Source: Candidatus Edwardsbacteria bacterium
GTDB taxonomy: Bacteria; Edwardsbacteria; AC1; EtOH8
Length of the DNA: 64,000 bases
Assembly: GCA_020053305.1 (NCBI GenBank)
Contig: JAGVNJ010000074.1
Coordinates: forward strand, 7,348-71,347
Direction of reading: 5' to 3'
Shown: piece by piece, positions 5,406-26,082 of the stretch
Numbering within the stretch: the stretch's first letter is position 1
Layout: each line of letters starts with the position of its first letter
Translations under genes and position numbers: made by a program
The notes under the pieces: generated by a model
Databases searched by the model: none
What the model was told of the DNA's origin: nothing
The model's input: only the letters and a program-made list of their open reading frames with translations

Positions 5406-6637
5406 ACAGCAGGGGCGGAGAAATAGACCATTACCTATTGGTGGCGGTGCTGGTGCTGACCGGATTCGGGCTGATCATGAGCTTCAGCGCCGGGGGCTTC
5501 ATGTCCGGCAGTTCGGCCAAATTCTCCAATGACAGCCTGTTCTTTTTCAAGCGGGAGCTGATAAGGGTGGCCTTGGCCCTGGTGTTTTTCCTGGTAGCCC
5601 TCAATATCAATTACCGGAAATTAAGGAGCCTGATAGTCCCGTTCTTCGGGGCGATGCTGGGGGCGATGCTGCTTACCCTGCTTCTGGCCCAGTCGGTCAG
5701 GGGATCCCGCAGCTGGATAATGGGGATACAGCCGGTGGAGATCGCCCGGATCGCCTTGGTGTTGTTTTTGGCCGACTTCATAGACAAAAAGGGCGAAGAT
5801 TTCAAAAAAATAAAGGTCGGATATATTCCGGGGGTGGCGGCGGTGGGTTTGCTGGCGGTGATCATTGGCCTGCAGCCCGATTTCGGAAGCGCCATGGCGT
5901 TGTCGATCCTGGGCTATACCATGCTGTTCCTGGGCGGGGCCAACCTGCTGGCCTGGGCGGGCGGGCTGGGCCTGGCCTCAGTTCTTTTTGTTACCGCAGC
6001 CCTGACCCAAAAGCATGTGCTGGGCCGGCTGACCGGATTCTGGTGGGGGCTTACCAGGCCCGAGGAACTGGGGGCTTTGATCGGCTCCTCCTCCGGGCAT
6101 GTTAAAAATACCCTGATACAGGCCCATCAGTCCATCCTGGGTATCGGCTCCGGCGGGTTTTTTGGGGTGGGACTGGGACAGAGCCGGCAGAAGTTCCTGT
6201 TCGTCAGCGAGGCCCACACCGATTTCATATACTCCATCATCGGGGAGGAGGGCGGGCTTCTGTTCGCCGGGATAATCATGCTGGTCTTTCTGGTCATTCT
6301 GTGGCGGGGGATAAAACTATCGCTGCAATTGAGCGACCGGTTCGAGTCCCTGACGGTGCTGGGATTGAGCTGCGGGATATTCATCTATGCGGTCATCAAC
6401 ATCAGCGTGGCGCTGGGGATCTTTCCGATCACCGGCCTGCCCCTGCCTTTTCTAAGCTACGGCGGCTCGGCCCTGGTGGCCAATGCGGCCTCGGTGGGTT
6501 TGATACTGAACATCTCAAAGCACCGGGGGGAAAAATCCGGACAAACCTTTATCAGGAAGAACAATGGAGTTAGCGATAGCCGGTGGAGGGACGGGAGGTC
6601 ATCTCTATCCTGGTCTGGCCGTAGCCGCCGCCGTTAA
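5402..6637 (+). CDS. ftsW: peptidoglycan glycosyltransferase / cell division protein FtsW (SEDS family)
   Basis: Ten-TM SEDS-like protein between murD and murG. It has a 4-nt overlap with murD and an Arg-rich C-terminal tail that overlaps murG by 74 nt. Confidence 0.85.
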   Translation: MNSRGGEIDHYLLVAVLVLTGFGLIMSFSAGGFMSGSSAKFSNDSLFFFKRELIRVALALVFFLVALNINYRKLRSLIVPFFGAMLGAMLLTLLLAQSVRGSRSWIMGIQPVEIARIALVLFLADFIDKKGEDFKKIKVGYIPGVAAVGLLAVIIGLQPDFGSAMALSILGYTMLFLGGANLLAWAGGLGLASVLFVTAALTQKHVLGRLTGFWWGLTRPEELGALIGSSSGHVKNTLIQAHQSILGIGSGGFFGVGLGQSRQKFLFVSEAHTDFIYSIIGEEGGLLFAGIIMLVFLVILWRGIKLSLQLSDRFESLTVLGLSCGIFIYAVINISVALGIFPITGLPLPFLSYGGSALVANAASVGLILNISKHRGEKSGQTFIRKNNGVSDSRWRDGRSSLSWSGRSRRR

Positions 6638-7664
6638 GCAGGCGGATACTCAAGCCAAGATCACGTTTTATGGCACCAAGCAGGGCATAGAATCGCGGGT
6701 GCTACCGGGGATGGGCTATGATCTCAAATATATTTCTGCCAAGGGATTTTTGGGTAAAGGCTGGACAGACAAAATATTTTCCCCTCTCTGGATGGCAGCT
6801 GGCGTCTGGCAATCGCTCTTTTATATGGCCAGGAACCGCCCGGATGTGGTTCTGGGCACCGGCGGTTACGTTTCGGCCCCCCCGGTGGTGGCGGCCTGGA
6901 TGTTAAGAATCCCGGTATCCCTGCTGGCCCTGGATGTGATGCCCAGTCAAGCGGTGCGGTTCCTGGCCAGGTTTGCCGATCAGATATACGGCGGTTTTCC
7001 GGAATGCGCCCGGCACCTAATCCCCAAGTCCCAGGTGATATTCACCGGAAATCCCATCAGGCCGGAGATCGGAAGAATAACCAGAGGCCAGGGGGCGGTC
7101 CGGTTCGGGCTGGAAGAAAACAAAAAGACCATCCTGATATCCGGCGGGAGCCAGGGAGCCCACAGCATCAATATTTCGGTGCTGGATTCTTTGAAGATAC
7201 TCGATCAGGTCGGAAGGCTTAAGGAAATCCAGATAATATTTCAGACCGGCAAAAAAGATCATGGCCAGGCGACGGAAGCCGTCAAACGTTTTGCAACAAA
7301 AATAAAAGTCCTGCCCTATATCGACGAAATGCCTTACGCCCTGGCGGCCGCCGACCTGGTGATCAGCCGCTCCGGGGCCGGGATTTCGGAAACCCTGGCC
7401 TGCGGCCTGCCCTCGATACTGATACCGTATCCTTATGCCGCCAGCAATCACCAGGAATACAATGCCAAAAGTCTGGAAAAAGTCGGTGCAGCAGAAATGA
7501 TATTGGACAAGGATATGAACGGGCAAGTGTTGGCGGAAAAAATCACTAAAATTCTATTCGACCAGGACAGATATCACCAAATGGCCATCGCCTCCAAATC
7601 CCTGGCCCGGCCGGAAGCAGCAGGGAAAATTGCCGAAAATTTATTAAGAATTGCGGGAAAATAA
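6564..7664 (+). CDS. murG: undecaprenyldiphospho-muramoylpentapeptide beta-N-acetylglucosaminyltransferase
   Basis: N-terminus MELAIAGGGTGGHLYPGLAVA is the canonical MurG G-loop; GT28 family. Confidence 0.9.
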   Translation: MELAIAGGGTGGHLYPGLAVAAAVKQADTQAKITFYGTKQGIESRVLPGMGYDLKYISAKGFLGKGWTDKIFSPLWMAAGVWQSLFYMARNRPDVVLGTGGYVSAPPVVAAWMLRIPVSLLALDVMPSQAVRFLARFADQIYGGFPECARHLIPKSQVIFTGNPIRPEIGRITRGQGAVRFGLEENKKTILISGGSQGAHSINISVLDSLKILDQVGRLKEIQIIFQTGKKDHGQATEAVKRFATKIKVLPYIDEMPYALAAADLVISRSGAGISETLACGLPSILIPYPYAASNHQEYNAKSLEKVGAAEMILDKDMNGQVLAEKITKILFDQDRYHQMAIASKSLARPEAAGKIAENLLRIAGK

Positions 7665-12056: not shown

Positions 12057-13331
12057 ATGGCCGAGCAGATAAAACTTTTGGAACAGCAGATCGCCGAGGC
12101 GATCGCCGAGCCCTTGTACGGCATCATTCAGAACGAACCCAAGAAATCAAATAAAGGAGAAGAGAGTATGCTGGAATTCGAAGAGGATGTTATCAGCGAA
12201 CGCTGCAACATCAAGGTGGTGGGAGTGGGCGGCGGAGGCGGCAACGCCGTCAACCGGATGGTGGAGGCCGGCCTGAACGGGGTGGACTTCATCGCCGTCA
12301 ATACCGACCTGCAGGTGCTGAGGAAATCCCTGGCCGGCCAGAAACTGCAGATCGGGCACAAGCTGACCAGGGGCCTGGGATCGGGCGGCAATCCCGAGAT
12401 CGGGCGCCGGGCCTTCGAGGAGGACAAGGCCCGGGTGGCCGAGATGATCTCGGGCAGCGACATGCTGTTCATCACCGCCGGGATGGGCGGGGGCACCGGA
12501 ACCGGGGCCGCCCCGATGGTGGCCGATCTGGCCCGGGAGATGAACATCCTGACTGTGGCGGTGGTCACCAAGCCCTTCGAATGGGAGGGCCGCAAGAGGA
12601 TCCTGCAGTCCGAGGAGGGCATCCGGGACCTGAAGGAACGGGTGGACACCCTGATCGTCATCCCCAACCAGCGGGTGCTGTCAGTGGTGGGCAAACAGAC
12701 CAAGCTGACCGAATCTTTCCGAATCATAGACGACGTGCTGCTCAAGGCCACCCGCGGCATCTCCGACCTGATCACCGTTCCCGGACTGGTCAACGTGGAC
12801 TTCGCCGACGTCCGCGCGGTGATGCTGGAGCGGGGCGACGCCCTGATGGGGGTGGGAATCGGCACCGGCGAGAACCGCTCCATCACTGCGGCCGAGGAGG
12901 CCATCGCCAACACCCTGCTGGAGGGGGTTTCCATCAAGGGGGCCAAGGCCATTTTGCTGAACATCTCGGCCTCGGATGAGATGACTCTGACCGAGGTCAA
13001 CGAGGTGGCCTCGGTTATCCGCAGCGCGGCCGGCGAGGAGGCCAACCTGATCTTCGGAACGGTGATAGATCCCGAGGCCGGGGACAATATGAGCGTGACG
13101 GTGATAGCCACCGGCCTGGGCAACGGCGCACCCAAGATGGAGAAGGATCTTCCCGACAACAACCGGATAGATTTCCCCCAGTCCTTCCGCAAGGAGAACC
13201 TGGCTCCGGGGACCTTCCAGCGCAAGGAACAGCGCTCCAACATCCAGACCATTGTCACCAAAGGCCAGGTCAGCGCGGTAAAGCAGGACGATTTGGAGAT
13301 ACCCACCTACATGCGCCGCCTGATGGACTGA
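12057..13331 (+). CDS. ftsZ: cell division GTPase FtsZ
   Basis: Tubulin signature GGGTGTG, the NTDLQ motif and a C-terminal FtsA-binding peptide (DLEIPTYMRR). A Shine-Dalgarno lies at 12044-12049. An alternative ATG at 12168 is also preceded by GGAG. Confidence 0.95.
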   Translation: MAEQIKLLEQQIAEAIAEPLYGIIQNEPKKSNKGEESMLEFEEDVISERCNIKVVGVGGGGGNAVNRMVEAGLNGVDFIAVNTDLQVLRKSLAGQKLQIGHKLTRGLGSGGNPEIGRRAFEEDKARVAEMISGSDMLFITAGMGGGTGTGAAPMVADLAREMNILTVAVVTKPFEWEGRKRILQSEEGIRDLKERVDTLIVIPNQRVLSVVGKQTKLTESFRIIDDVLLKATRGISDLITVPGLVNVDFADVRAVMLERGDALMGVGIGTGENRSITAAEEAIANTLLEGVSIKGAKAILLNISASDEMTLTEVNEVASVIRSAAGEEANLIFGTVIDPEAGDNMSVTVIATGLGNGAPKMEKDLPDNNRIDFPQSFRKENLAPGTFQRKEQRSNIQTIVTKGQVSAVKQDDLEIPTYMRRLMD

Positions 13332-13424
13332 TCCCGGTTCACGGATAACGGATAATAGGGTAAAGATGTAATAATCCAGGGCTGTCTGCTATCTCTTCGG
13401 CAGACGGCCGGAAGTGGTTTGATC

Positions 13425-13515
13425 TCTTCTTTATTTGACCTCACCCCTCCGCCATTAGCAGGTGGTCCATATAGGCGGGCAAGCTGCCCCTCTTCTATTA
13501 AAACAGGAGAGGGGT
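13425..13515. repeat. gene-less copy of DUF559-module end (TTGACCTCACCCCT + CCCCTCT..AGAGGGG hairpin)
   Basis: The 14-mer TTGACCTCACCCCT is identical at 13425 and 53745. The hairpin CCCCTCT(14 nt)AGAGGGG at 13477-13504 matches those flanking the DUF559 genes. Confidence 0.5.
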
Positions 13516-13636
13516 TTTGTATGCCCGGTGGTTTGACCACCCCCGTCCCTCCCCGCAACGGAGAGGGCTTTTGTATTCCCTTCCCGAGGCGGGAAGAGGC
13601 AGGGGTTGGGTCCGTATCACCACGACCGCCAAACGA

Positions 13637-13664
13637 GTCATTCCTGTGCAAACAGGAATCCAGG
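13637..13664. repeat. dispersed hairpin GTCATTCC-N12-GGAATCCAGG (copy 1)
   Basis: GTCATTCCTGTGCAAACAGGAATCCAGG; a second copy is at 28649-28676. Confidence 0.5.
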
Positions 13665-13722
13665 CCTATATCATTGCCAATTTATAGGGGTGATTAGTGA
13701 GTCGCCCGTACCACCAATTACC

Positions 13723-13752
13723 GTAGGGACACGGCATGCCGTTCGTCCCTAC
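13723..13752. repeat. REP-like palindrome GTAGGGACACGGCATGCCGTTCGTCCCTAC
   Basis: 8-bp terminal arms GTAGGGAC/GTCCCTAC with an internal palindromic core ACGGCATGCCGT. Confidence 0.6.
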
Positions 13753-13921
13753 ATGCATGCCCGGCAGGTTTGACCGCCCCCCTCCCCATGGGGAAGTATT
13801 TTTATTTCCCCCTTGATCTCCCCAAAAATATTTAAAAAATCTTCATATGGGTCATTGACAAATTTTAATAAATTGTATTAGTATAATTACCTGGCAATGT
13901 CTATATCATACATCTGAATTT

Positions 13922-13949
13922 GCAGGGGCAGGATGCATACTGCCCCTGC
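13922..13949. repeat. REP-like palindrome GCAGGGGCAGGATGCATACTGCCCCTGC
   Basis: Near-perfect 28-nt palindrome centred on ATGCAT; a 37-nt near-identical copy lies inside the RAYT gene. Confidence 0.7.
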
Positions 13950-14026
13950 GGGTACAAAACATAGAAATCAAATTGTCATGTCCGTAAACAATTCCAAACA
14001 TAAACGTCGTTCTATCCGCCTGCCAA

Positions 14027-14076
14027 CCTCACCCATCTCCCTCTCCTAATGCTTTAGGAGAGGGAGATGGGTGAGG
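14027..14076. repeat. 50-nt perfect hairpin (23-bp stem) of the CCTCACCC..CCCTCTCC family, inserted at RAYT 5' end
   Basis: CCTCACCCATCTCCCTCTCCTAA-tgct-TTAGGAGAGGGAGATGGGTGAGG. A TAA inside the right arm terminates the in-frame upstream RAYT reading frame. Confidence 0.75.
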
Positions 14077-14148
14077 TAAGGGGCGTATTACATAACAATC
14101 TGCGCCCAAGACCGCAAATGTATATTTGGTGCAATCGCCGATGGGCGG

Positions 14149-14583
14149 ATGGTATTAAACCCATTCGGCGAAATTGCCCGAAACGAATGGGTTAAAACCG
14201 GCGAATTACGGCCCTATGTCATTCCGGATGTATTTGTGATTATGCCGAATCATATTCATGGAATATTGATAATAACCGATGATGACCATTGTAGGGGCAC
14301 GATGCATCGTGCCCCTACGGGTACGACCGAACGTTTTGGCAAACCTGTCGCCGGATCATTGCCGACCATCATCCGTTGTTACACCGCGGCGGTGACCCGC
14401 CAGATAAATAAATTGCGCAATACCCCGGGCCATAAAATATGGCAACGTAATTATTACGAACACATCATCCGCAACGATAAATCATACGATAAAATCAGAC
14501 AATACATCATGGAAAACCCGCTGTATTGGCCGCAGGATGAGGAAAATCCCAACCGAGCAATTCCTAAAAACGCCATATCATAA
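14149..14583 (+). CDS. REP-associated tyrosine transposase (RAYT / IS200-like HUH Y1), probably 5'-truncated
   Basis: HUH motif (IMPNHIHGILII) and a C-terminal catalytic Tyr region (NYYEHIIRNDKSYDKIRQYIMENPLYW). The first beta-strand (..AYYITICAQDRKCIFG) is encoded in-frame upstream of the ATG but is cut off by a stop inside an inserted 50-bp hairpin. Confidence 0.7.
   Translation: MVLNPFGEIARNEWVKTGELRPYVIPDVFVIMPNHIHGILIITDDDHCRGTMHRAPTGTTERFGKPVAGSLPTIIRCYTAAVTRQINKLRNTPGHKIWQRNYYEHIIRNDKSYDKIRQYIMENPLYWPQDEENPNRAIPKNAIS
14291..14318. repeat. perfect 28-nt REP-like palindrome GTAGGGGCACGATGCATCGTGCCCCTAC inside RAYT coding sequence
   Basis: Perfect palindrome. It is translated as ..HCRGTMHRAPTGT.. 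between the HUH and Tyr motifs. Confidence 0.75.
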
Positions 14584-14589
14584 CAGGTC

Positions 14590-15870
14590 GTGAAAACCTT
14601 AATATTCATAATATTTACGGTCCTTTCTCTTCCCACCTTAGCCGTTGCCTCCTTTGAAGAGATCCAGACCGATGCCCGGCTCTACGGCCTGGCCGGGGCC
14701 GGGGTAGCGCTATCCGATATGACCGGCAGCGACCTGTATAATCCGGCCCTTCCGGCTCTGGCAGGCGACCTCTCGGCCTCCAGCGGCAGTTCGATTCCCT
14801 TCGGCTTGATGGACCTGACGGCTTTCTCCGGCGCCTATGCCCATCGTAAAGATAAAATAGGTGTGGGCGCAATGCTGGCTACTATGGGCGGCCGTCTTTA
14901 CCGGGAAAATATTTTAAAAGGGGCCTTCTCCTGCCTCCTGATAGATGAAGCGGCGGTGGGAGTTTCCCTTAACTGCTATCAGCTGAACATCGAAAGGTAC
15001 GGCTCGGCGGCCGGAATGGGGCTGGACCTGGGATTGCTGGGCAAACCGGCAGAATGGCTGGCGCTGGGAATGAAGGCCGCAAACGTGAACCGGCCGACCA
15101 TCGGCCAAAATGGTGAGGAGATCTCGCAAAGCCTTTCGCTGGGCGGGGCGGTGGAGCCCTTGGATGAAATTACATTATCCTGGGAACTGTATTGCCAGCG
15201 GGATTGGCCCTGCCAGGTCCGCATCGGGCAGGAATACCGCTATCGTAATCTGTTAGTCCTTCGGGCCGGATTCTGCGATCGGCCCAATGCGTCCAGCCTG
15301 GGCTTCGGGGTGATCCATAGGAATTTAAGGCTGGATTATGCCGTCAGGACCCACCCCGATCTGGGGCTATCGCACTGCCTGAGCCTGAACTATATCACCC
15401 AGAGGATATTTGCCAGACCGGAGGAGGTCAGGATAGAGGAGGCCCCAACCGTAAAAATCCTCGAAAAGATAGACCCCAACAGCGCTTCGTTCGATGACCT
15501 CAGTCTTTTGCCGGGCATCGGGCCCCAATCGGCCGCGGATATCATCTCTTTTCGCGACAGCATCGGGCCGTTCAAATATCTAGATGACCTGGCCGAAGTC
15601 AAGGGAATCGGCCGGGCGATGCTGGAGAGAATGGCTCCGTATGTGACGCTGGAATACAAACCCTACATCCCGCTCATTATCAACATCAACCAGGCATCGG
15701 CCCGGGAATTGGCCGCCCTGCCGGGCATCGGGCCCAAAGCTGCCGGGGACATTGCCGCCTACCGCCAGGAGAACGGACCATTCCGGAACCTGGAGGATAT
15801 AATGAACGTCAAAGGCATCGGGCGGAGGACCTACGAAGCGATAAAGAATCTTATCACCATCGGGCCATGA
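14590..15870 (+). CDS. secreted/outer-membrane beta-barrel-like protein with two C-terminal ComEA-type helix-hairpin-helix DNA-binding motifs
   Basis: Signal peptide and a Gly/aromatic-rich N-terminal domain. Two HhH motifs (LLPGIGPQSAADIISFR...VKGIGRAMLERM and LPGIGPKAAGDIAAYR...VKGIGRRTYEAI) are typical of ComEA. Confidence 0.6.
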   Translation: MKTLIFIIFTVLSLPTLAVASFEEIQTDARLYGLAGAGVALSDMTGSDLYNPALPALAGDLSASSGSSIPFGLMDLTAFSGAYAHRKDKIGVGAMLATMGGRLYRENILKGAFSCLLIDEAAVGVSLNCYQLNIERYGSAAGMGLDLGLLGKPAEWLALGMKAANVNRPTIGQNGEEISQSLSLGGAVEPLDEITLSWELYCQRDWPCQVRIGQEYRYRNLLVLRAGFCDRPNASSLGFGVIHRNLRLDYAVRTHPDLGLSHCLSLNYITQRIFARPEEVRIEEAPTVKILEKIDPNSASFDDLSLLPGIGPQSAADIISFRDSIGPFKYLDDLAEVKGIGRAMLERMAPYVTLEYKPYIPLIININQASARELAALPGIGPKAAGDIAAYRQENGPFRNLEDIMNVKGIGRRTYEAIKNLITIGP

Positions 15871-17741
15871 ATAAATTCCTGAAGGGCCTGGCGATGCTGG
15901 CAATTTACTTGAATGCCGGGGCTCAGGAGATGCCCGACATCGAGGACGAGCAGGCTTCGCAGGACCTTGCCGAGCAGATGATCTATCTGCAGGAGCACCC
16001 GGTAAATCTCGATCATGCCGATCTTGAACAGCTGATGGCCATTCCGGCGATCACTCCCTATCAGGCCCTCCGTCTGGACCGATACTTAAAAAGCCATCCC
16101 AAATTGAGCGATCCGTTCATTCTGGTCAGGGATTCCATTTTGGACCTGCGGACCGTGGAATCCTTGCTGCCTTATATCTGCCTTGATTCCTATTCCCCGG
16201 CCCAAAGCGCCAAATTAAAGTTCTCCACCAGGCTGCAGCGAAAGTGGCCGGACGCCGAGGGCATTGCCGACGGCAGTTTTCACGGTTCGCCGCTGGAGAG
16301 CCACACCCGGATGCGGTTTCGCCCGGATAAAAACTGGGAGGTATTCGGACAATGCCAGCATGATGTGGGCGAGCCGGCCTGGAACGATTATTGTTCGGGC
16401 AATCTATGGTGGTCGGCTGGCGGGGGTAAGAGGCAAATAATACTTGGGGATTATCAGATGAGGATCGGGGAGGGGCTGCTGTTCGGCGGCAGCTCGCCCC
16501 GCATATTCTCCAGCCACTGGTCCGGCTCGGCCCGGATTGACGCGGCAGAGGTTCGCCCGTATTTTTCCTCTCATGAATACAGGGGTTTACGGGGGCTCTG
16601 CCTAAAATATCCATTAGGTGATAACCTAAACGTCATTGGTTTTGTCTCCCGGCGGCAGATGGATGCCAAAACAGATTCGCTGGGCCAGATAACCGGCATC
16701 TATGACGACGGATATCACCGCAGCGATGGGGAGCTGGAAAGGAAAAACAATTCGGCCGAAACCATCTTTGGCGGACGGGTGGGCCTAAGTGCCAACCGCT
16801 CCTGCGATATCGGGATAACCGGCTATAACCGGTCCTTTGATAAAACGACGGTCGAAGGGTTATATAACTCTTTCCTGATAAGCCTGGATGCCAGGACCGT
16901 AAGGGATAAAAACCGAGTCTCGCTTGAACTGGCCAAGGGAGAGGGGGCGGTCGGCGGGTATAGCGGGGAGATCGGTTTTATGGTGCGGGATTATGCCGGC
17001 CGAATCAATTTTTACGGATATTCCCCGGAATTCAAGCCCCCCCGCTTTAATTCGGACAATTATTTCGGCGGTGATGATGAAAAGGGGGTCACCATCGCCG
17101 GATCGTATCGGGCTCCGTTGGGCTTTGATATTTCGGCCATATATAACCAATTCCATCCCTGGCAGCCGTTTCCCATTTCATCCCAGGGTTATCGGGGTTT
17201 TCGCTACGAAGCCAGGCTGGATAAAAAAATATTCCAAGGTCTTCTGGCCGATCTTCGGATCAGATCCCTGCAGAAAGAATATTTTAACGATGGACAATCC
17301 GTCGATCCGTTACACCATACCTCGAACTTTACCCTCAAGACCGGGTTGCGTTGGCAATTGGCAAAAAATTACAGCGCCGGCAGCAGGTACCAAACATCCT
17401 TTTTCGGGGATTCCCGGTACGATGCCAAGAGCCGCGGCGAAATAATATCCTTAGCTGTAAAAGCCCAGCTGCCTAATGATCTCACAATCCAAATGCAATC
17501 GGTTTTTCATCACGCACCCAGTTACGATGCCAGACTCTACCTGGCGGAGCCGGAGCTTAGGTCCGGGGGGAGCTTTCACGGCTACTGGGGCCTGGGGCGG
17601 CGGGATGTTTTATTTTTGAGATATGCTTTGGGCCGTACCGGGGCTTTTTATCTGAAAATAGCCAGGCAGATAAGGGATTACCAGGGCCAGATTACTAAAA
17701 ACACTGAGCTGGGAATCGAACTGGAATTTTTGTTAAAATAG
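15867..17741 (+). CDS. helix-hairpin-helix domain protein with large predicted outer-membrane beta-barrel
   Basis: Signal-like N-terminus, then a ComEA-like HhH (VNLDHADLEQLMAIPAITPYQALRLDRY), then about 500 aa rich in Y/G/R alternating strands. It has a 4-nt overlap with the upstream gene. Confidence 0.55.
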   Translation: MNKFLKGLAMLAIYLNAGAQEMPDIEDEQASQDLAEQMIYLQEHPVNLDHADLEQLMAIPAITPYQALRLDRYLKSHPKLSDPFILVRDSILDLRTVESLLPYICLDSYSPAQSAKLKFSTRLQRKWPDAEGIADGSFHGSPLESHTRMRFRPDKNWEVFGQCQHDVGEPAWNDYCSGNLWWSAGGGKRQIILGDYQMRIGEGLLFGGSSPRIFSSHWSGSARIDAAEVRPYFSSHEYRGLRGLCLKYPLGDNLNVIGFVSRRQMDAKTDSLGQITGIYDDGYHRSDGELERKNNSAETIFGGRVGLSANRSCDIGITGYNRSFDKTTVEGLYNSFLISLDARTVRDKNRVSLELAKGEGAVGGYSGEIGFMVRDYAGRINFYGYSPEFKPPRFNSDNYFGGDDEKGVTIAGSYRAPLGFDISAIYNQFHPWQPFPISSQGYRGFRYEARLDKKIFQGLLADLRIRSLQKEYFNDGQSVDPLHHTSNFTLKTGLRWQLAKNYSAGSRYQTSFFGDSRYDAKSRGEIISLAVKAQLPNDLTIQMQSVFHHAPSYDARLYLAEPELRSGGSFHGYWGLGRRDVLFLRYALGRTGAFYLKIARQIRDYQGQITKNTELGIELEFLLK

Positions 17742-17796: not shown

Positions 17797-18993
17797 ATGA
17801 CAGAAGACAGGAGACAAATAGAAGGCAAAGAGCATGAGCTGAGAGAGGCGGAGGCCAGGCTCGGTCCGAACAATCCCGAATTGCTTCCCTTGCTAAAAGA
17901 ACTAGCGGAAACCTATACCCACTGGGGAAGGTTTTCTTTGGCCGATCGCCTGTACCGCAAAGCCCTGAAGATAACCATCACGGAATCAGGCCCGGAGAGC
18001 CTGGAGGTTGCCTCTTGTTTTAATAATGTGGCCGTTTTGTGCAGCATTCAGGGGCGTTATTATGAGGCTCTGCCGTTTTATGAGAAATCCCTCAAGCTGA
18101 ATAAAAAACTGGCCGAACGCGATGTCTTGGCACAGGCCAGATTGATGGCCAATATCGGGACGGTCTACAAAATCCTGGGGCGGAACGCCCAGGCCGAGGA
18201 AATTTTGCTGAAAGCCAGGGAAATCTTCCAAAAGGAATCCGGCGGCAATAATCCAATGCTGGCGGGAATACTGATAAATCTGGCCGGGCTGTATCGCGAT
18301 CTGAACCGTCTGCCGGCGGCCGAGTCCCTATGTAATACCACCATCGAGATGTCATTGAATGCCTACGGCCCCGAGCATCCACAAATAGCCTTATGTTATA
18401 ATAACCTGGCCGAGGTTTACGCGGCCCAGGGAAGGATGAACGAGGCCGAGGAGCTGTATCTGAAAGCCATAGAAATCAAGGAAAAGGTACAGGGCCCTGA
18501 GCATCCGGAGATCGCAATGTATCTCAACAACCTGGGCGACCTCTACCGATCGCAGCAAAAATTTATGGAGGCCGAAACCATCTACCGCCGGGCTTTGGAG
18601 ATAGACGAGATCCATTTGCCCCAGGAAAGCCCGACCATGGCCACCACCTATAAAAACCTGGCCACCCTTTCTTCGGTCCAGGGTTATTATGATAAAGCCG
18701 AGGCCTATTATCTCCGGGCCATCTCCATTTATGAACGCACTTTGGGGCCGGATCATCCCGAGGTGGCGGAGCCCCTGGTTCGGCTGGCGGAGTTGATGCA
18801 CGGGCAGGGCCGGAACAACGAGGCCGAGGCCCTGTGCTACCGTTCGATGGCCATCTGGCAGAAGGGGTATGGGCCCAAACACATCAAGGTGGGGGAGATG
18901 CTGAAGATGCTGTCCAAATTGTGCTTTGCCCAGGAAAAGATGTCCGAGGGAGAGGCGTTTTTAAAGCAGGCCTTTGAGATAAAAACAAACTAA
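17797..18993 (+). CDS. tetratricopeptide (TPR_10/TPR_12-like) repeat protein
   Basis: At least eight tandem 42-aa repeats of the form ..A.CYNNLA.VY..QGRY.EAE.LY.KALEI. Confidence 0.8.
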   Translation: MTEDRRQIEGKEHELREAEARLGPNNPELLPLLKELAETYTHWGRFSLADRLYRKALKITITESGPESLEVASCFNNVAVLCSIQGRYYEALPFYEKSLKLNKKLAERDVLAQARLMANIGTVYKILGRNAQAEEILLKAREIFQKESGGNNPMLAGILINLAGLYRDLNRLPAAESLCNTTIEMSLNAYGPEHPQIALCYNNLAEVYAAQGRMNEAEELYLKAIEIKEKVQGPEHPEIAMYLNNLGDLYRSQQKFMEAETIYRRALEIDEIHLPQESPTMATTYKNLATLSSVQGYYDKAEAYYLRAISIYERTLGPDHPEVAEPLVRLAELMHGQGRNNEAEALCYRSMAIWQKGYGPKHIKVGEMLKMLSKLCFAQEKMSEGEAFLKQAFEIKTN

Positions 18994-19012: not shown

Positions 19013-19759
19013 ATGCACCGAGTCTTGATGTCGGCGTTGATTTTCCTCATTATTGTTTTGTCTCCATACAGCAAAGCATATTCACAAACTGTAGCACCCG
19101 ATAGCGGTTCTATCCAGCAAATAGAAACAGAGGGTTTAAATCCCGAACCTCAAGCGCCAGTTGCCGCAATAGCCGATAGCATTGCCGTTATCAAACCTTT
19201 CGCACCCTCCCTGCGGTTGGAGGGTTTCAGTATGTATAATTTTGCCGCGGCCTACTTCTACAGTCGCCAGAAAATGACCGGGCTTGTTTGGTGGGACGAG
19301 ACCAGCTATGAGTACACCTATACCACAACGATTTTTGCAGCCGGGGCGAGCTGGAATTACCTGATAAATAACGGGCTTTCTTTGGGCGGCAGCTTGGGGC
19401 TTGTCAACATCGGGACATCCAGATCCGGCGGGCCGGAATCATATTACTATTCCGATTATTCCAACAACTCCTCCATGACCCTGATCGGGCCGAGAATTGC
19501 CCAGTATTTTGGAAACAAGAACAGCAAATTCATGCCCTTCGTGGCCGGCGAGATGGATATCATTACAACCTCATATGGAAGCTATGGCGACAGCGAGACT
19601 ATTTTTCGAGTGGGCGGCGGCGTGATCATCAAACTTGTTCCCAGCGTGGGTCTGTCTATCGGCCTGGATTATCTTAAAATAGAGGATCAGAAGAACACCG
19701 TGAATGTAATGGGCACTATGGGGTTGGTCTGCATGCCTTTCGACCTAAAAAATCAATAA
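19013..19759 (+). CDS. putative outer-membrane beta-barrel protein
   Basis: Signal peptide, alternating hydrophobic and aromatic beta-strands, Gly-rich loops, and a C-terminus ending CMPF. Confidence 0.5.
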   Translation: MHRVLMSALIFLIIVLSPYSKAYSQTVAPDSGSIQQIETEGLNPEPQAPVAAIADSIAVIKPFAPSLRLEGFSMYNFAAAYFYSRQKMTGLVWWDETSYEYTYTTTIFAAGASWNYLINNGLSLGGSLGLVNIGTSRSGGPESYYYSDYSNNSSMTLIGPRIAQYFGNKNSKFMPFVAGEMDIITTSYGSYGDSETIFRVGGGVIIKLVPSVGLSIGLDYLKIEDQKNTVNVMGTMGLVCMPFDLKNQ

Positions 19760-21196: not shown

Positions 21197-23146
21197 ATGA
21201 AAGATTTATTGAAAATTCTGGAAAAGAAAAAAATTACTTTGCCGGATGACATTTTCGCTCTGCTCAACAATTGCAAAAACATCTCTGTTTTCGATTCTGT
21301 TGAGCAATTGGCAAGTGCTGCCGTTGGCGGCGAGAACAACAAAACTTTTGAAGTTAAGTACGACATTCCAGGGAAAGGGGAATACATCGAAGCAATAATC
21401 CACCGGGTAACCAATGGTATTTCCGCTAATTATATAGAGCCCTATATGCGCCGGCGGGACCCCGGCACCATGTCCATAGCAGATGCCCTGCCCAGCGATA
21501 AAAAGAGGTTTAAAGAGGAATTTGGGTATGAATTTCAATTGCTTAAATCAGAAACATTAAATTGGCTAAGAAAGCAGGACTTGGCCGTTTTTTTCTATTT
21601 TGCCGGAAGGGAAAAAATCGGCGTGGGAGGAATGGCCATTGCCCCGGCAAATGCCGGTTTTTTTGCCATGGGGTTAGCGATGTTGCAAAGCATCACTCCT
21701 GTTGTCAATTTACCGGAGGATTTTGCTATTGATTCTGTAATATATGTTGCCCCGACTTTTAGGCACACCCATTTTAAAGGCAGGCAGGTAGTTGTTCACA
21801 ACCGATCAGAAAACCGGCACGAAATTTATGCCTATAACCTATATCCGGGGCCAAGCGCCAAGAAAGGGTTGTATGGAGTATTATTGACAAAAGGGGAGAA
21901 AGAAGGATGGATCACTGCCCATTGCTCCACAGTTCAAGTAGTGAGCCCCTACGACAATTTAACAACTTTTATGCATGAAGGGGCAAGCGGCGGAGGAAAG
22001 AGCGAAATGCTGCAGCATATAGTAAGGGAGCAGGATGGTCAGGTTTTAATCGGGCAAAATATAGTGACCGGTGAAAAAAGGCTTATCAACCTGCCCCTTT
22101 TCTGCTTGTTTAATCCTGTTACCGATGATATGGCCCTCTGTCATCCATCAATCCAGTCGGATAGCGGAAAATTGACGGTTTTAGACGCAGAGAATGCTTG
22201 GTTTATTCGGGTTGACAGCATTAATGAATATGGAGACGATCCTTTCCTTGAAAAAATAACCATCAACCCCAAAAAGCCGTTGTTATTTTTGAATATTAAA
22301 TCTAAACCAGAGTGTACGGCGTTGATATGGGACCATATCGAAGATGAACCAGGAAAAAGATGCCCCAACCCCAGGGTAATTCTTCCAAGGGATGTTGTGC
22401 CCGGCGTTATCAGTAAACCCATTACAGTGGATGTCCGGAGTTTTGGCGTGCGCACTCCTCCCTGTTCAAAGGTTAGCCCCAGCTATGGTATTATCGGATT
22501 ATTCCATATCCTGCCGCCGTCATTAGCCTGGTTATGGAGGCTCGTTTCGCCCAGAGGCCATGCAAATCCGAGCATTGTGGGAGGCGGGGGAATGGAATCG
22601 GAAGGAGTCGGTTCGTATTGGCCTTTTGCGACCGGCAAGAGGGCGACCCATGCAAATATAATTCTTGAACAGATTATACAAACCCCGCGGATGAGATATA
22701 TTTTAGTGCCTAATCAGCACATTGGCGTTTGGAAGGTAGGCTTCAAACCACAGCTTTTAATGCGCGAATACCTCACACGCAGGGGAAATGCAAAATTAAG
22801 GAGCGACCAGTACCAAGAGGCCAGATGCCCCCTGTTGGGTTATGAATTGAACTATCTTACCATTGAAGGGGCAAAAATACCTTCGCGGTTTCTTCAGGTT
22901 CACCGGCAGAGCGAAGTCGGTAATGAAGGGTATGATGCCGGAGCACGGGTTTTATATGATTTTTTTAAAAATGAGTTGCAGAACTATCTGACGCCGGAAT
23001 TATCTGTTACCGGAAGAATGATAATTGAGGCATGTATGTCGGGCGCAACAGCTGAAGACTACAATTCGATAATACCAATGCATTACCAGTACTCATTCTT
23101 AACAATGGATGATTATGAACTTAGCAATAACAATACTTGGTACTAA
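21197..23146 (+). CDS. hypothetical P-loop protein with HprK/PEPCK-like Walker A (GASGGGKSE) and an LIG motif
   Basis: Markedly lower GC than its surroundings. The GxSGxGKSE motif matches the HPr kinase P-loop, and the spacing to a following VLIGQN resembles the PEPCK kinase-2 LIGDDEH motif. Confidence 0.5.
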   Translation: MKDLLKILEKKKITLPDDIFALLNNCKNISVFDSVEQLASAAVGGENNKTFEVKYDIPGKGEYIEAIIHRVTNGISANYIEPYMRRRDPGTMSIADALPSDKKRFKEEFGYEFQLLKSETLNWLRKQDLAVFFYFAGREKIGVGGMAIAPANAGFFAMGLAMLQSITPVVNLPEDFAIDSVIYVAPTFRHTHFKGRQVVVHNRSENRHEIYAYNLYPGPSAKKGLYGVLLTKGEKEGWITAHCSTVQVVSPYDNLTTFMHEGASGGGKSEMLQHIVREQDGQVLIGQNIVTGEKRLINLPLFCLFNPVTDDMALCHPSIQSDSGKLTVLDAENAWFIRVDSINEYGDDPFLEKITINPKKPLLFLNIKSKPECTALIWDHIEDEPGKRCPNPRVILPRDVVPGVISKPITVDVRSFGVRTPPCSKVSPSYGIIGLFHILPPSLAWLWRLVSPRGHANPSIVGGGGMESEGVGSYWPFATGKRATHANIILEQIIQTPRMRYILVPNQHIGVWKVGFKPQLLMREYLTRRGNAKLRSDQYQEARCPLLGYELNYLTIEGAKIPSRFLQVHRQSEVGNEGYDAGARVLYDFFKNELQNYLTPELSVTGRMIIEACMSGATAEDYNSIIPMHYQYSFLTMDDYELSNNNTWY

Positions 23147-25563: not shown

Positions 25564-26082
25564 ATGAAAAATAAGATCGCCATAGTTGCTTCGGAAATGA
25601 TAGAACGCTCTATTTTTGTAATAAGAGGGCATAAAGTGATGTTGGATGCCGATCTGGCCAAACTTTACGGGGTGGAGACAAAAGCGCTTAACCGGGCCGT
25701 GAAAAGGAACATTGAACGTTTTCCCGGCGATTTCCTGTTCAGACTTACTACCGCCGAAACTGATAATTTGAGGAGCCAAATTGGCACCTCAAGTTGGGGT
25801 GGCAAAAGATACTTACCCCATGCCTTTACCGAGCAGGGAGTAGCCATGCTTTCAGGTGTTCTTAAAAGCAAAAGAGCCGTAAACGTAAATATTGAAATAA
25901 TGCGGGCATTTGTAAAAATGCGTAAAATGCTTATCTCTCACGATGAACTTGCTCAAAAAGTGACGGACATGGAAAAGCGGTACGACGGAAATTTCAGAAT
26001 GGTTTTCAACGCCATAAAACAATTGATAGAACCTCCGGCCATAAAAAGAAACCCCATCGGATTCAGGTCCGATAAAAAGTAA
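25564..26082 (+). CDS. ORF6N (KilA-N-like) domain DNA-binding protein
   Basis: Conserved ORF6N stretch ..VMLDADLAKLYGVETKALNRAVKRNIERFPGDFLFRLT..SQ.GTSSWGGKRYLPHAFTEQGVAMLSGVLKS.. Confidence 0.75.
   Translation: MKNKIAIVASEMIERSIFVIRGHKVMLDADLAKLYGVETKALNRAVKRNIERFPGDFLFRLTTAETDNLRSQIGTSSWGGKRYLPHAFTEQGVAMLSGVLKSKRAVNVNIEIMRAFVKMRKMLISHDELAQKVTDMEKRYDGNFRMVFNAIKQLIEPPAIKRNPIGFRSDKK

Follow-up and report, generated by a model that had tools for sequence, protein, structure and literature searches.

What is the function of two adjacent genes that encode secreted outer-membrane barrels and, attached to these barrels, domains with the fold of the competence protein ComEA? The question is raised by a 64,000-nucleotide (nt) stretch of DNA from Candidatus Edwardsbacteria (contig JAGVNJ010000074.1, forward strand, positions 7,348–71,347), hereafter called the window, whose coordinates are used throughout unless another locus is named. 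The genes, A (14590–15870) and B (15867–17741), both lie on the forward strand. A preliminary description, made from the sequence alone, had seen in them two barrels bearing helix–hairpin–helix (HhH) DNA-binding motifs, and had proposed a surface device for binding or taking up DNA that is distinct from the secretin-based route. Exact and near-exact copies of both proteins are found in public assemblies labelled Candidatus Edwardsbacteria, a candidate phylum, and all of their relatives fall within phyla of the Fibrobacterota–Chlorobiota–Bacteroidota (FCB) group. The present analysis finds that the pair is the local form of a two-barrel operon that is widespread in this group and is linked elsewhere to porD, and in which the small barrel is normally without HhH modules. 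The reading favoured here, to which a probability of about 0.3–0.4 is given, is that the two proteins make up a complex of two barrels in the outer membrane, to which a periplasmic DNA receptor is tethered, and that this complex serves pilus-independent DNA uptake. The DNA-uptake idea is a live hypothesis, and an unproven one.

The proteins encoded by A and B

Gene A has a GTG start and specifies a predicted secreted protein of 426 amino acids (aa), in which an outer-membrane barrel of the FadL/PorV/BamG type is followed by two ComEA HhH modules. The signal peptide (aa 1–20, 14590–14649), MKTLIFIIFTVLSLPTLAVA followed by SFEE, was read from the translation, with cleavage between AVA and SF; its position is conserved in alignments and it lacks a lipobox cysteine. 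An AlphaFold2 model built from 29 homologues (mean predicted local distance difference test score, pLDDT, 81) consists of a conserved 38-residue N-terminal segment, 14 strands, a disordered linker and two helical modules. The N-terminal tail (aa 21–58), which is strongly conserved and has the pattern FEE..TDAR..G.AGAG...NPA, precedes the barrel (aa 60–274); together they occupy 14650–15414. The linker (about aa 276–291, 15415–15462) has a pLDDT below 50. Both the 14-strand fold and the close structural likeness are those of the FadL, PorV, PorQ and BamG proteins, and the nearest relatives of A in sequence as well as in structure are PorV and PorQ. The match to the PorV/PorQ model (E 1.7e-10) is nevertheless well under every curated cut-off, the NCBIfam scores being 41 bits against 90 for PorV_fam, 19.4 against 250 for T9SS_OM_PorV and 12.3 against 220 for T9SS_PorQ. 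Judged by these profiles, A is a separate branch of the PorV/PorQ family, neither PorV nor PorQ.

The two modules at the C-terminus of A match Pfam HHH_3 in two stretches (E 1.7e-40) and the ComEA HhH repeat region, TIGR00426, with 109.7 bits (cut-off 53.1). Module 1 (aa 292–356, 15463–15657), with the hairpins LPGIGP and VKGIGR, is acidic (isoelectric point, pI, 4.3); module 2 (aa 361–426, 15670–15867), with LPGIGPKAA and VKGIGRR, is basic (pI 9.4). All four Gly-hydrophobic-Gly hairpins are intact, and identity to solved ComEA domains is 37% for Geobacillus ComEA (8dss) and 41% for a ComEA-related protein of Thermus (2duy). These are two true, canonical ComEA-type HhH_3 modules. They probably bind DNA, and module 2 appears to be the best DNA-binding candidate of the pair. 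The full-length ComEA architecture (TIGR01259, comE) is not reached by A, which at 130 bits falls short of the cut-off (152.35) and aligns with the HhH part only (model positions 60–120), and no SLBB domain was found in A with Pfam or NCBIfam. Homologues of A down to 45% identity within the Edwardsbacteria clade all combine the barrel with two modules. Misassembly was considered as the source of this architecture and rejected, as at least 40 clusters from independent assemblies share it.

The start codon of B (ATG) overlaps the stop codon of A (TGA) in the sequence ATGA (15867–15870, forward strand), a 4-nt overlap that had been noticed at the outset and is the usual sign of translational coupling. 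B is a protein of 624 aa, also secreted, with a signal peptide (aa 1–19, 15867–15923) cleaved between AGA and QE. The glutamine at position +1 is nearly invariant across the B family, and this residue is typical of signal-peptidase-I substrates in Bacteroidota. In the structure model (pLDDT 79.7, predicted template modelling score 0.76) a helical N-terminal domain of approximately aa 28–114 is followed by about 24 long strands that run from aa 117 to the C-terminus. The barrel (about aa 115–624, 16209–17738) is rich in glycine (11.6%), arginine (8.4%) and tyrosine (5.5%), and carries motifs that are invariant in the family: QHDVGE (EKDxGE in most members), GDY..IGEGL, E237/R242/G243 and DGYHR. 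B found no match in Pfam or NCBIfam, and its barrel was also unmatched in 40 family members. A sequence search of the PDB with the B family returned matches to the N-terminal domain only. The barrel has no close solved relative. The B of the window is a full-length member of this family, with an end-to-end profile match, a barrel hidden Markov model (HMM) match of 2e-157, and the motifs in common register.

Which kind of barrel this might be was approached by fold and by domain content. A fold search groups B by size with the 24-strand ushers and the 26-strand MtrB, both of which pass folded proteins. No secretin C-domain or N0/N1 domain was matched by Pfam in A, B or the 40 B-family members, and the fold of B is that of a monomeric barrel. 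Nor does B have the Plug and TonB box of TonB-dependent transporters, the N, plug and C domains of ushers or the jellyroll of LptD, and POTRA features are absent by Pfam from B and the same 40 members. B belongs neither to the secretins nor to the TonB-dependent transporters, the ushers or the LptD proteins.

The N-terminal domain of B (aa 42–108, 15990–16190) has a degenerate HhH_3 fold. The B-family profile matches the ComEA structure 8dss at E 9e-12, and the profile of the Edwardsbacteria-type domain aligns over 62 residues with each of the A modules (hhalign 96%, E 4e-9); homology to the ComEA module is seen at the profile level only. A ComEA-fold domain is present on B throughout the family, and in most phyla it can still be identified as HHH_3. 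Both Gly-hydrophobic-Gly turns have been lost (IPAITP, VRDSIL), so that an HhH_3 domain with two such hairpins was not found in B, and the domain is acidic (pI 5.0). Only A, therefore, carries credible DNA-binding motifs. The preliminary description had named missing Gly-hPro-Gly contacts as grounds for refutation, and by that standard the HhH of B is ruled out as a DNA-binding motif and that of A stands. The preliminary description had outlined this architecture well for A (signal peptide, barrel and two C-terminal HhH motifs), as translation, model and domain matches agree; for B its signal peptide and barrel of roughly 500 glycine-, arginine- and tyrosine-rich residues stand, while its N-terminal HhH is reduced to a fold whose glycine hairpins are gone. 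The barrels it had predicted were modelled in both proteins, with 14 and about 24 strands, and its separation of the pair from the secretins agrees with the domain searches.

A two-barrel operon across the FCB group

A profile search for the B family found 4,759 clusters (at 50% identity) at E ≤ 1e-30, nearly all of them full length (620–720 aa), and 10,284 at E ≤ 1e-10, with members in Bacteroidota, Ignavibacteriota, Chlorobiota, Balneolota and Latescibacterota. Gene neighbourhoods were surveyed by scanning one genome per species with a two-motif DNA pattern taken from the B barrel, which gave at least 120 loci from Cytophagales, Chitinophagales, Bacteroidales, Ignavibacteriota (including Ignavibacterium album and Melioribacter roseus), Chlorobiota, Latescibacterota and Eisenbacteria. 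All open reading frames (ORFs) of these loci were searched with HMMs for the A barrel, the A HhH modules, the two domains of B, and PorD. Among the matches listed, an A-like gene lies directly upstream of the B-like gene and on the same strand in 63 of the 100 loci with readable upstream sequence, in at least four phyla; this figure, like that given below for porD (38 of 54), is a sample estimate, the pattern favouring the class of B genes with a motif spacing of 24 residues. The remaining B-like genes stand alone, without an upstream A-like gene. The pairing is retained down to 32% identity of B and is far beyond chance, and the two genes almost certainly represent a conserved two-barrel module. 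Co-occurrence of the pair in related genomes, proposed in the preliminary description as a check, is thereby confirmed across several phyla, with the difference that the A-like proteins there are without HhH: the HMM search found these modules in none of the 63 A-like genes among the matches listed.

Three contexts outside Edwardsbacteria were inspected, in Gracilimonas sediminicola and two metagenome bins (L005, L007 and L008), and they share one layout. A gene on the opposite strand, which meets the curated PorD model (NF052317, DUF4835) at E 8e-89, is followed by a gene of 268–309 aa and then by a B-like gene that abuts or overlaps it. The small gene of such loci encodes an A-type barrel without an HhH module (hhalign against the A family, 99.3%), and the A-like proteins of L005 and L007 are, like A itself, under the NCBIfam cut-offs for PorV and PorQ. 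The divergent porD lies at 6226–7155 in L005, 4937–5842 in L007 and 4883–5710 in L008. Over the whole survey, porD adjoins the A-like gene divergently in 38 of the 54 loci with enough flanking sequence, among the matches listed, and the linked loci span Ignavibacteriota, Bacteroidota, Balneolota and a genome of the Chlorobiaceae (L062). Across phyla, then, the enigmatic porD, with its weak phenotypes, is syntenic with a two-barrel operon, which points to where the function of PorD may lie; its main function may belong to the two-barrel module rather than to secretion proper.

This synteny is also the starting point of a different explanation, in which the pair would be part of a PorD-linked outer-membrane complex working with or beside the type IX translocon, for example in the handling of cargo, lipid or lipopolysaccharide, with DNA not being its substrate. 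The HhH-fold domain would then be a periplasmic protein-docking module and the ComEA modules of A a secondary, lineage-specific addition. PorD is a periplasmic partner of PorW/SprE in an extended translocon (PMC8754138; PMC10994853), the closest relatives of A are PorV and PorQ, the N-terminal domains of B are acidic with degenerate hairpins, and PsbU and GspK, two weak matches here, employ the HHH_3 fold with no DNA involved. Set against this, A and B both stay under the cut-offs of all type IX secretion models, and deletion of porD gives little or no secretion phenotype, its own role being uncertain (PMC8754138; PMC10994853). No PorD match was found anywhere in the window or in loci L001–L004 and L129–L130, so that porD does not adjoin the pair in Edwardsbacteria. 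The explanation also leaves unaccounted for a canonical, well-conserved tandem of ComEA modules fixed on A across a whole clade. A PorD-linked role without DNA is possible, if on balance doubtful.

Within Edwardsbacteria the pair has a different setting, the conserved gene order being murB-ftsQ-ftsA-ftsZ-A-B-small outer-membrane protein-rseP; in L003, B adjoins rseP downstream of uppS-cdsA. Such a housekeeping position could be read as that of a general factor for envelope or outer-membrane biogenesis, or of a plain nutrient channel, in which HhH would be incidental. The synteny with cell-division genes and rseP is lineage-specific, however, and elsewhere the pair occurs in unrelated contexts. 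B also lacks the POTRA, Plug, TonB-box and LptD features noted above, and a domain that has been kept in over 4,700 clusters is not likely to be an incidental feature. A general envelope role is accordingly judged unlikely.

The origin of the HhH modules of A can be traced a little further. They share 19–21% identity with the domain of B and 37–41% with canonical ComEA, and being closer to the latter they were acquired from a ComEA gene and not copied from B. The ComEA fusion on A is a gain specific to the Edwardsbacteria lineage, and is accompanied by loss of the hairpins from the domain of B.

Two further observations concern the B family itself. Ignavibacteria and related genomes have a second type of B gene, of approximately 690–725 aa, with no A-like gene or porD upstream (L012, L025, L027, L033, L045, L063, L075, L078, L087, L096, L111 and L114), which suggests two paralogous B subfamilies in these organisms. 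One distant member (P0022) is preceded by a DUF6029 gene (549 aa) and an Omp28-family gene (263 aa), with no recognisable A-like gene; the gene annotated as Omp28 might be a divergent A-like barrel.

A possible role in DNA uptake

How, then, could a small barrel, a large barrel and a pair of ComEA modules work together? Bacterial outer-membrane barrels with an even number of strands have both termini in the periplasm, and by this rule the C-terminus of A and the N-terminus of B would be periplasmic. The HhH modules are very likely to be located there, and A would share the extracytoplasmic (periplasmic) location of ComEA, as judged from its Sec signal and the C-terminal end of its 14-strand barrel. 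ComEA domains bind double-stranded DNA irrespective of its sequence, and hold DNA that has come in within the periplasm.

In Bacteroidota, barrels of the FadL family are lateral partners of larger barrels, PorV of SprA and BamG of BamA (PMC10994853; PMC12611786). By analogy, A would dock laterally on B in the outer membrane, and its ComEA modules would hang on a flexible linker of about 16 residues under the periplasmic mouth of a wide pore formed by B. There they could bind double-stranded DNA non-specifically, mainly via the basic module 2. Tethered to the outer membrane, the modules would play the part of a ComEA, capturing DNA that comes in through B and blocking its sliding back, and the outcome would be a first step of DNA uptake, independent of pilus and secretin, for transformation or for food. 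The strongest argument for reading the pair in terms of DNA is that ComEA-type domains occur on two different subunits and are independently homologous, so that they were recruited twice to one module, an argument of the Rosetta-stone type.

The HhH positions also bear on the suggestion of a surface device in the preliminary description; displayed on the cell surface, the modules would serve adhesion, biofilm formation or capture by binding extracellular DNA. In proteins of the FadL family the N-terminal tail can extend to the outside of the membrane (PMC12611786), and parts of A may therefore be surface-exposed. The HhH region, though, follows the 14-strand barrel in A and precedes the barrel in B, ends that are both periplasmic by topology, and A and B have ordinary Sec signal peptides with no surface-lipoprotein or type IX sorting signal. 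Surface binding of DNA is therefore not borne out and must be considered very improbable.

Several points weigh against DNA uptake as the role of the pair. Module 1 of A is acidic. The N-terminal domains of B are acidic in most of the family (pI 4–6), with the second glycine of each hairpin mostly lost, and an acidic, degenerate domain of this kind fits protein docking better than DNA binding. The neighbour that is conserved across phyla is porD, an accessory gene of type IX secretion, and not a competence gene; comEC, comF, dprA and pilus genes were all absent from the 64-kb window. Contact between A and B is deduced from gene order and analogy, and a transposon screen in Riemerella, which was not saturating, recovered a different outer-membrane barrel (PMC8459023).

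If DNA uptake by the pair is nonetheless entertained, its interest extends beyond Edwardsbacteria. It is not known how transformable Bacteroidota bring DNA across their outer membrane; type IV pili play no part in it (PMC11532111; PMC8459023). The A-like/B-like pair, present in many cultivable species, is a concrete candidate for this unexplained crossing. A bolder version, in which the pair, possibly together with PorD, would be the machine still missing for DNA entry through the outer membrane in the FCB superphylum, is a long shot. Were it true, it would explain how DNA enters the periplasm in Bacteroidota and relatives without type IV pili and secretins, and the fusion of ComEA to the small barrel in Edwardsbacteria would serve as the Rosetta stone for the DNA-entry role.

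Surroundings of the pair and comparison with known systems

The preliminary description had drawn attention to the position of the pair directly after a gene for a REP-associated tyrosine transposase (RAYT). The RAYT ORF does stop 7 nt before A, but it is interrupted and its significance for the pair does not hold. The frame extends upstream of the listed ORF, starting near 13978 (MSVNNSKHKRRSIRLP...), spans 13978–14583, and is broken by a 52-nt perfect hairpin with arms of 24+24 nt (14026–14077) that brings two in-frame stops. Inside the ORF there is also a 28-nt perfect palindrome (14291–14318; GTAGGGGCACGATG/CATCGTGCCCCTAC), a 93% copy of which lies at 13922–13949. At the site of RAYT, a relative with a B that is 87% identical has a different gene, and more distant relatives have nothing. 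A functional link between RAYT and the pair was rejected, the gene being a disrupted, strain-specific insertion that relatives lack at this place. The spacer from ftsZ to A is a variable hot spot (13331–14590 in the window, 3821–5727 in L129, 6403–6664 in L001). In the window it contains what is left of the RAYT gene together with GC-rich direct repeats, and in the relative with the 87% identical B a 386-aa gene without a Pfam match.

Downstream of B, a TPR_12-rich protein (398 aa, 17797–18993) lies before the small outer-membrane protein. Its slot is empty in L001 and L002 and is occupied in L129 by a 396-aa gene without a Pfam record; being absent in L001 and L002, the TPR gene was set aside as an insertion and not as part of the system. 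The small predicted outer-membrane protein (19013–19759, forward strand, 248 aa) has a weak match to OMP_b-brl (E 0.0028). Its homologue follows B directly in L001 and L002 (phmmer 1e-31 to L001 9908–10615). The protein is found after B in Edwardsbacteria-type loci only, being absent from the other FCB loci examined, and may be a lineage-specific accessory. Farther away, a DUF4914 protein (649 aa, E 1e-292) is encoded at 21197–23146 between rseP and fusA, where no such gene is present in L129 or L001. Between fusA and an asparaginase gene there is a gene for an ORF6N-domain protein (25564–26082); this KilA-N/Bro-like DNA-binding domain is typical of mobile elements. A search of the 64-kb window for genes of competence or type IX secretion turned up housekeeping genes only.

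Full-text literature searches found no paper on the A–B pair, the B barrel, HhH-bearing outer-membrane barrels or the neighbours of porD, and nothing relevant on the neighbours of Fjoh_3466 and PGN_1783. Comparison is therefore made with systems that share one or other component.

For A, the first of these is ComEA, as known from Bacillus and Geobacillus (8dss, 8dfk), Thermus (2duy), and Vibrio and Neisseria (ComEA/ComE). The likeness lies in the HhH_3 modules and in the expected extracytoplasmic location. ComEA proteins, however, are soluble or anchored in the inner membrane, and carry a single HhH_3 module, to which an SLBB or oligomerisation domain is often added, whereas A has two modules and is anchored by an outer-membrane barrel; the domain of B has only the fold in common with them. 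Strictly speaking, A is no ComEA: it falls short of the full-length model, is anchored differently and has two modules. With PorV–SprA and BamG–BamA the comparison rests on the small barrel as a partner of a large one, but A misses the cut-offs for PorV and PorQ, and B shows no sequence relationship to SprA (36 strands) or BamA (16 strands plus POTRA domains). No known PorV-family protein was found to have HhH modules, none being present on the 63 A-like genes among the matches listed.

The family of B appears in databases as 'ComEA family / HhH domain-containing protein', and B shares with it the motifs EKDxGE, GDY..GQGL and DGYHR. The name rests on the N-terminal domain of 65 residues alone, while the barrel of about 500 residues has no Pfam model, and in the B of the window even the HhH signature is gone. 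What is called a 'ComEA family DNA-binding protein' is in reality an outer-membrane barrel of about 24 strands with a small HhH-fold domain that is often degenerate, and, being taken from the small domain of a large-barrel family, the annotation is misleading.

The PilQ secretin with its type IV pilus would, if the hypothesis is right, have in common with the pair a wide outer-membrane channel and a periplasmic ComEA ratchet. It differs in that B is a beta-barrel of the monomeric type without secretin, N0 or AMIN domains, and the window contains no pilus genes. The pilus-independent transformation of Bacteroidota, which belong to related phyla, comes closer: in Riemerella anatipestifer (RA0C_RS04915/04920/02645) and P. 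gingivalis (ComEA PGN_0421, ComEC, ComF) uptake makes use of neither a secretin nor a type IV pilus, a protein of the ComEA type is needed, and the way in through the outer membrane is unknown (PMC8459023; PMC11532111). The outer-membrane candidate in Riemerella is a barrel with a carboxypeptidase-regulatory-like domain and does not belong to the B family (PMC8459023). PGN_0421, whose ComEA domain covers residues 94–165, is not claimed here as a member of the B family, its strong domain E-value suggesting a short, canonical ComEA. No paper recovered by the literature searches describes a ComEA domain attached to an outer-membrane barrel. Seen beside these systems, A can be described as a ComEA receptor tethered to a PorV-like barrel, a new combination of known parts within an uncharacterised operon that spans phyla.

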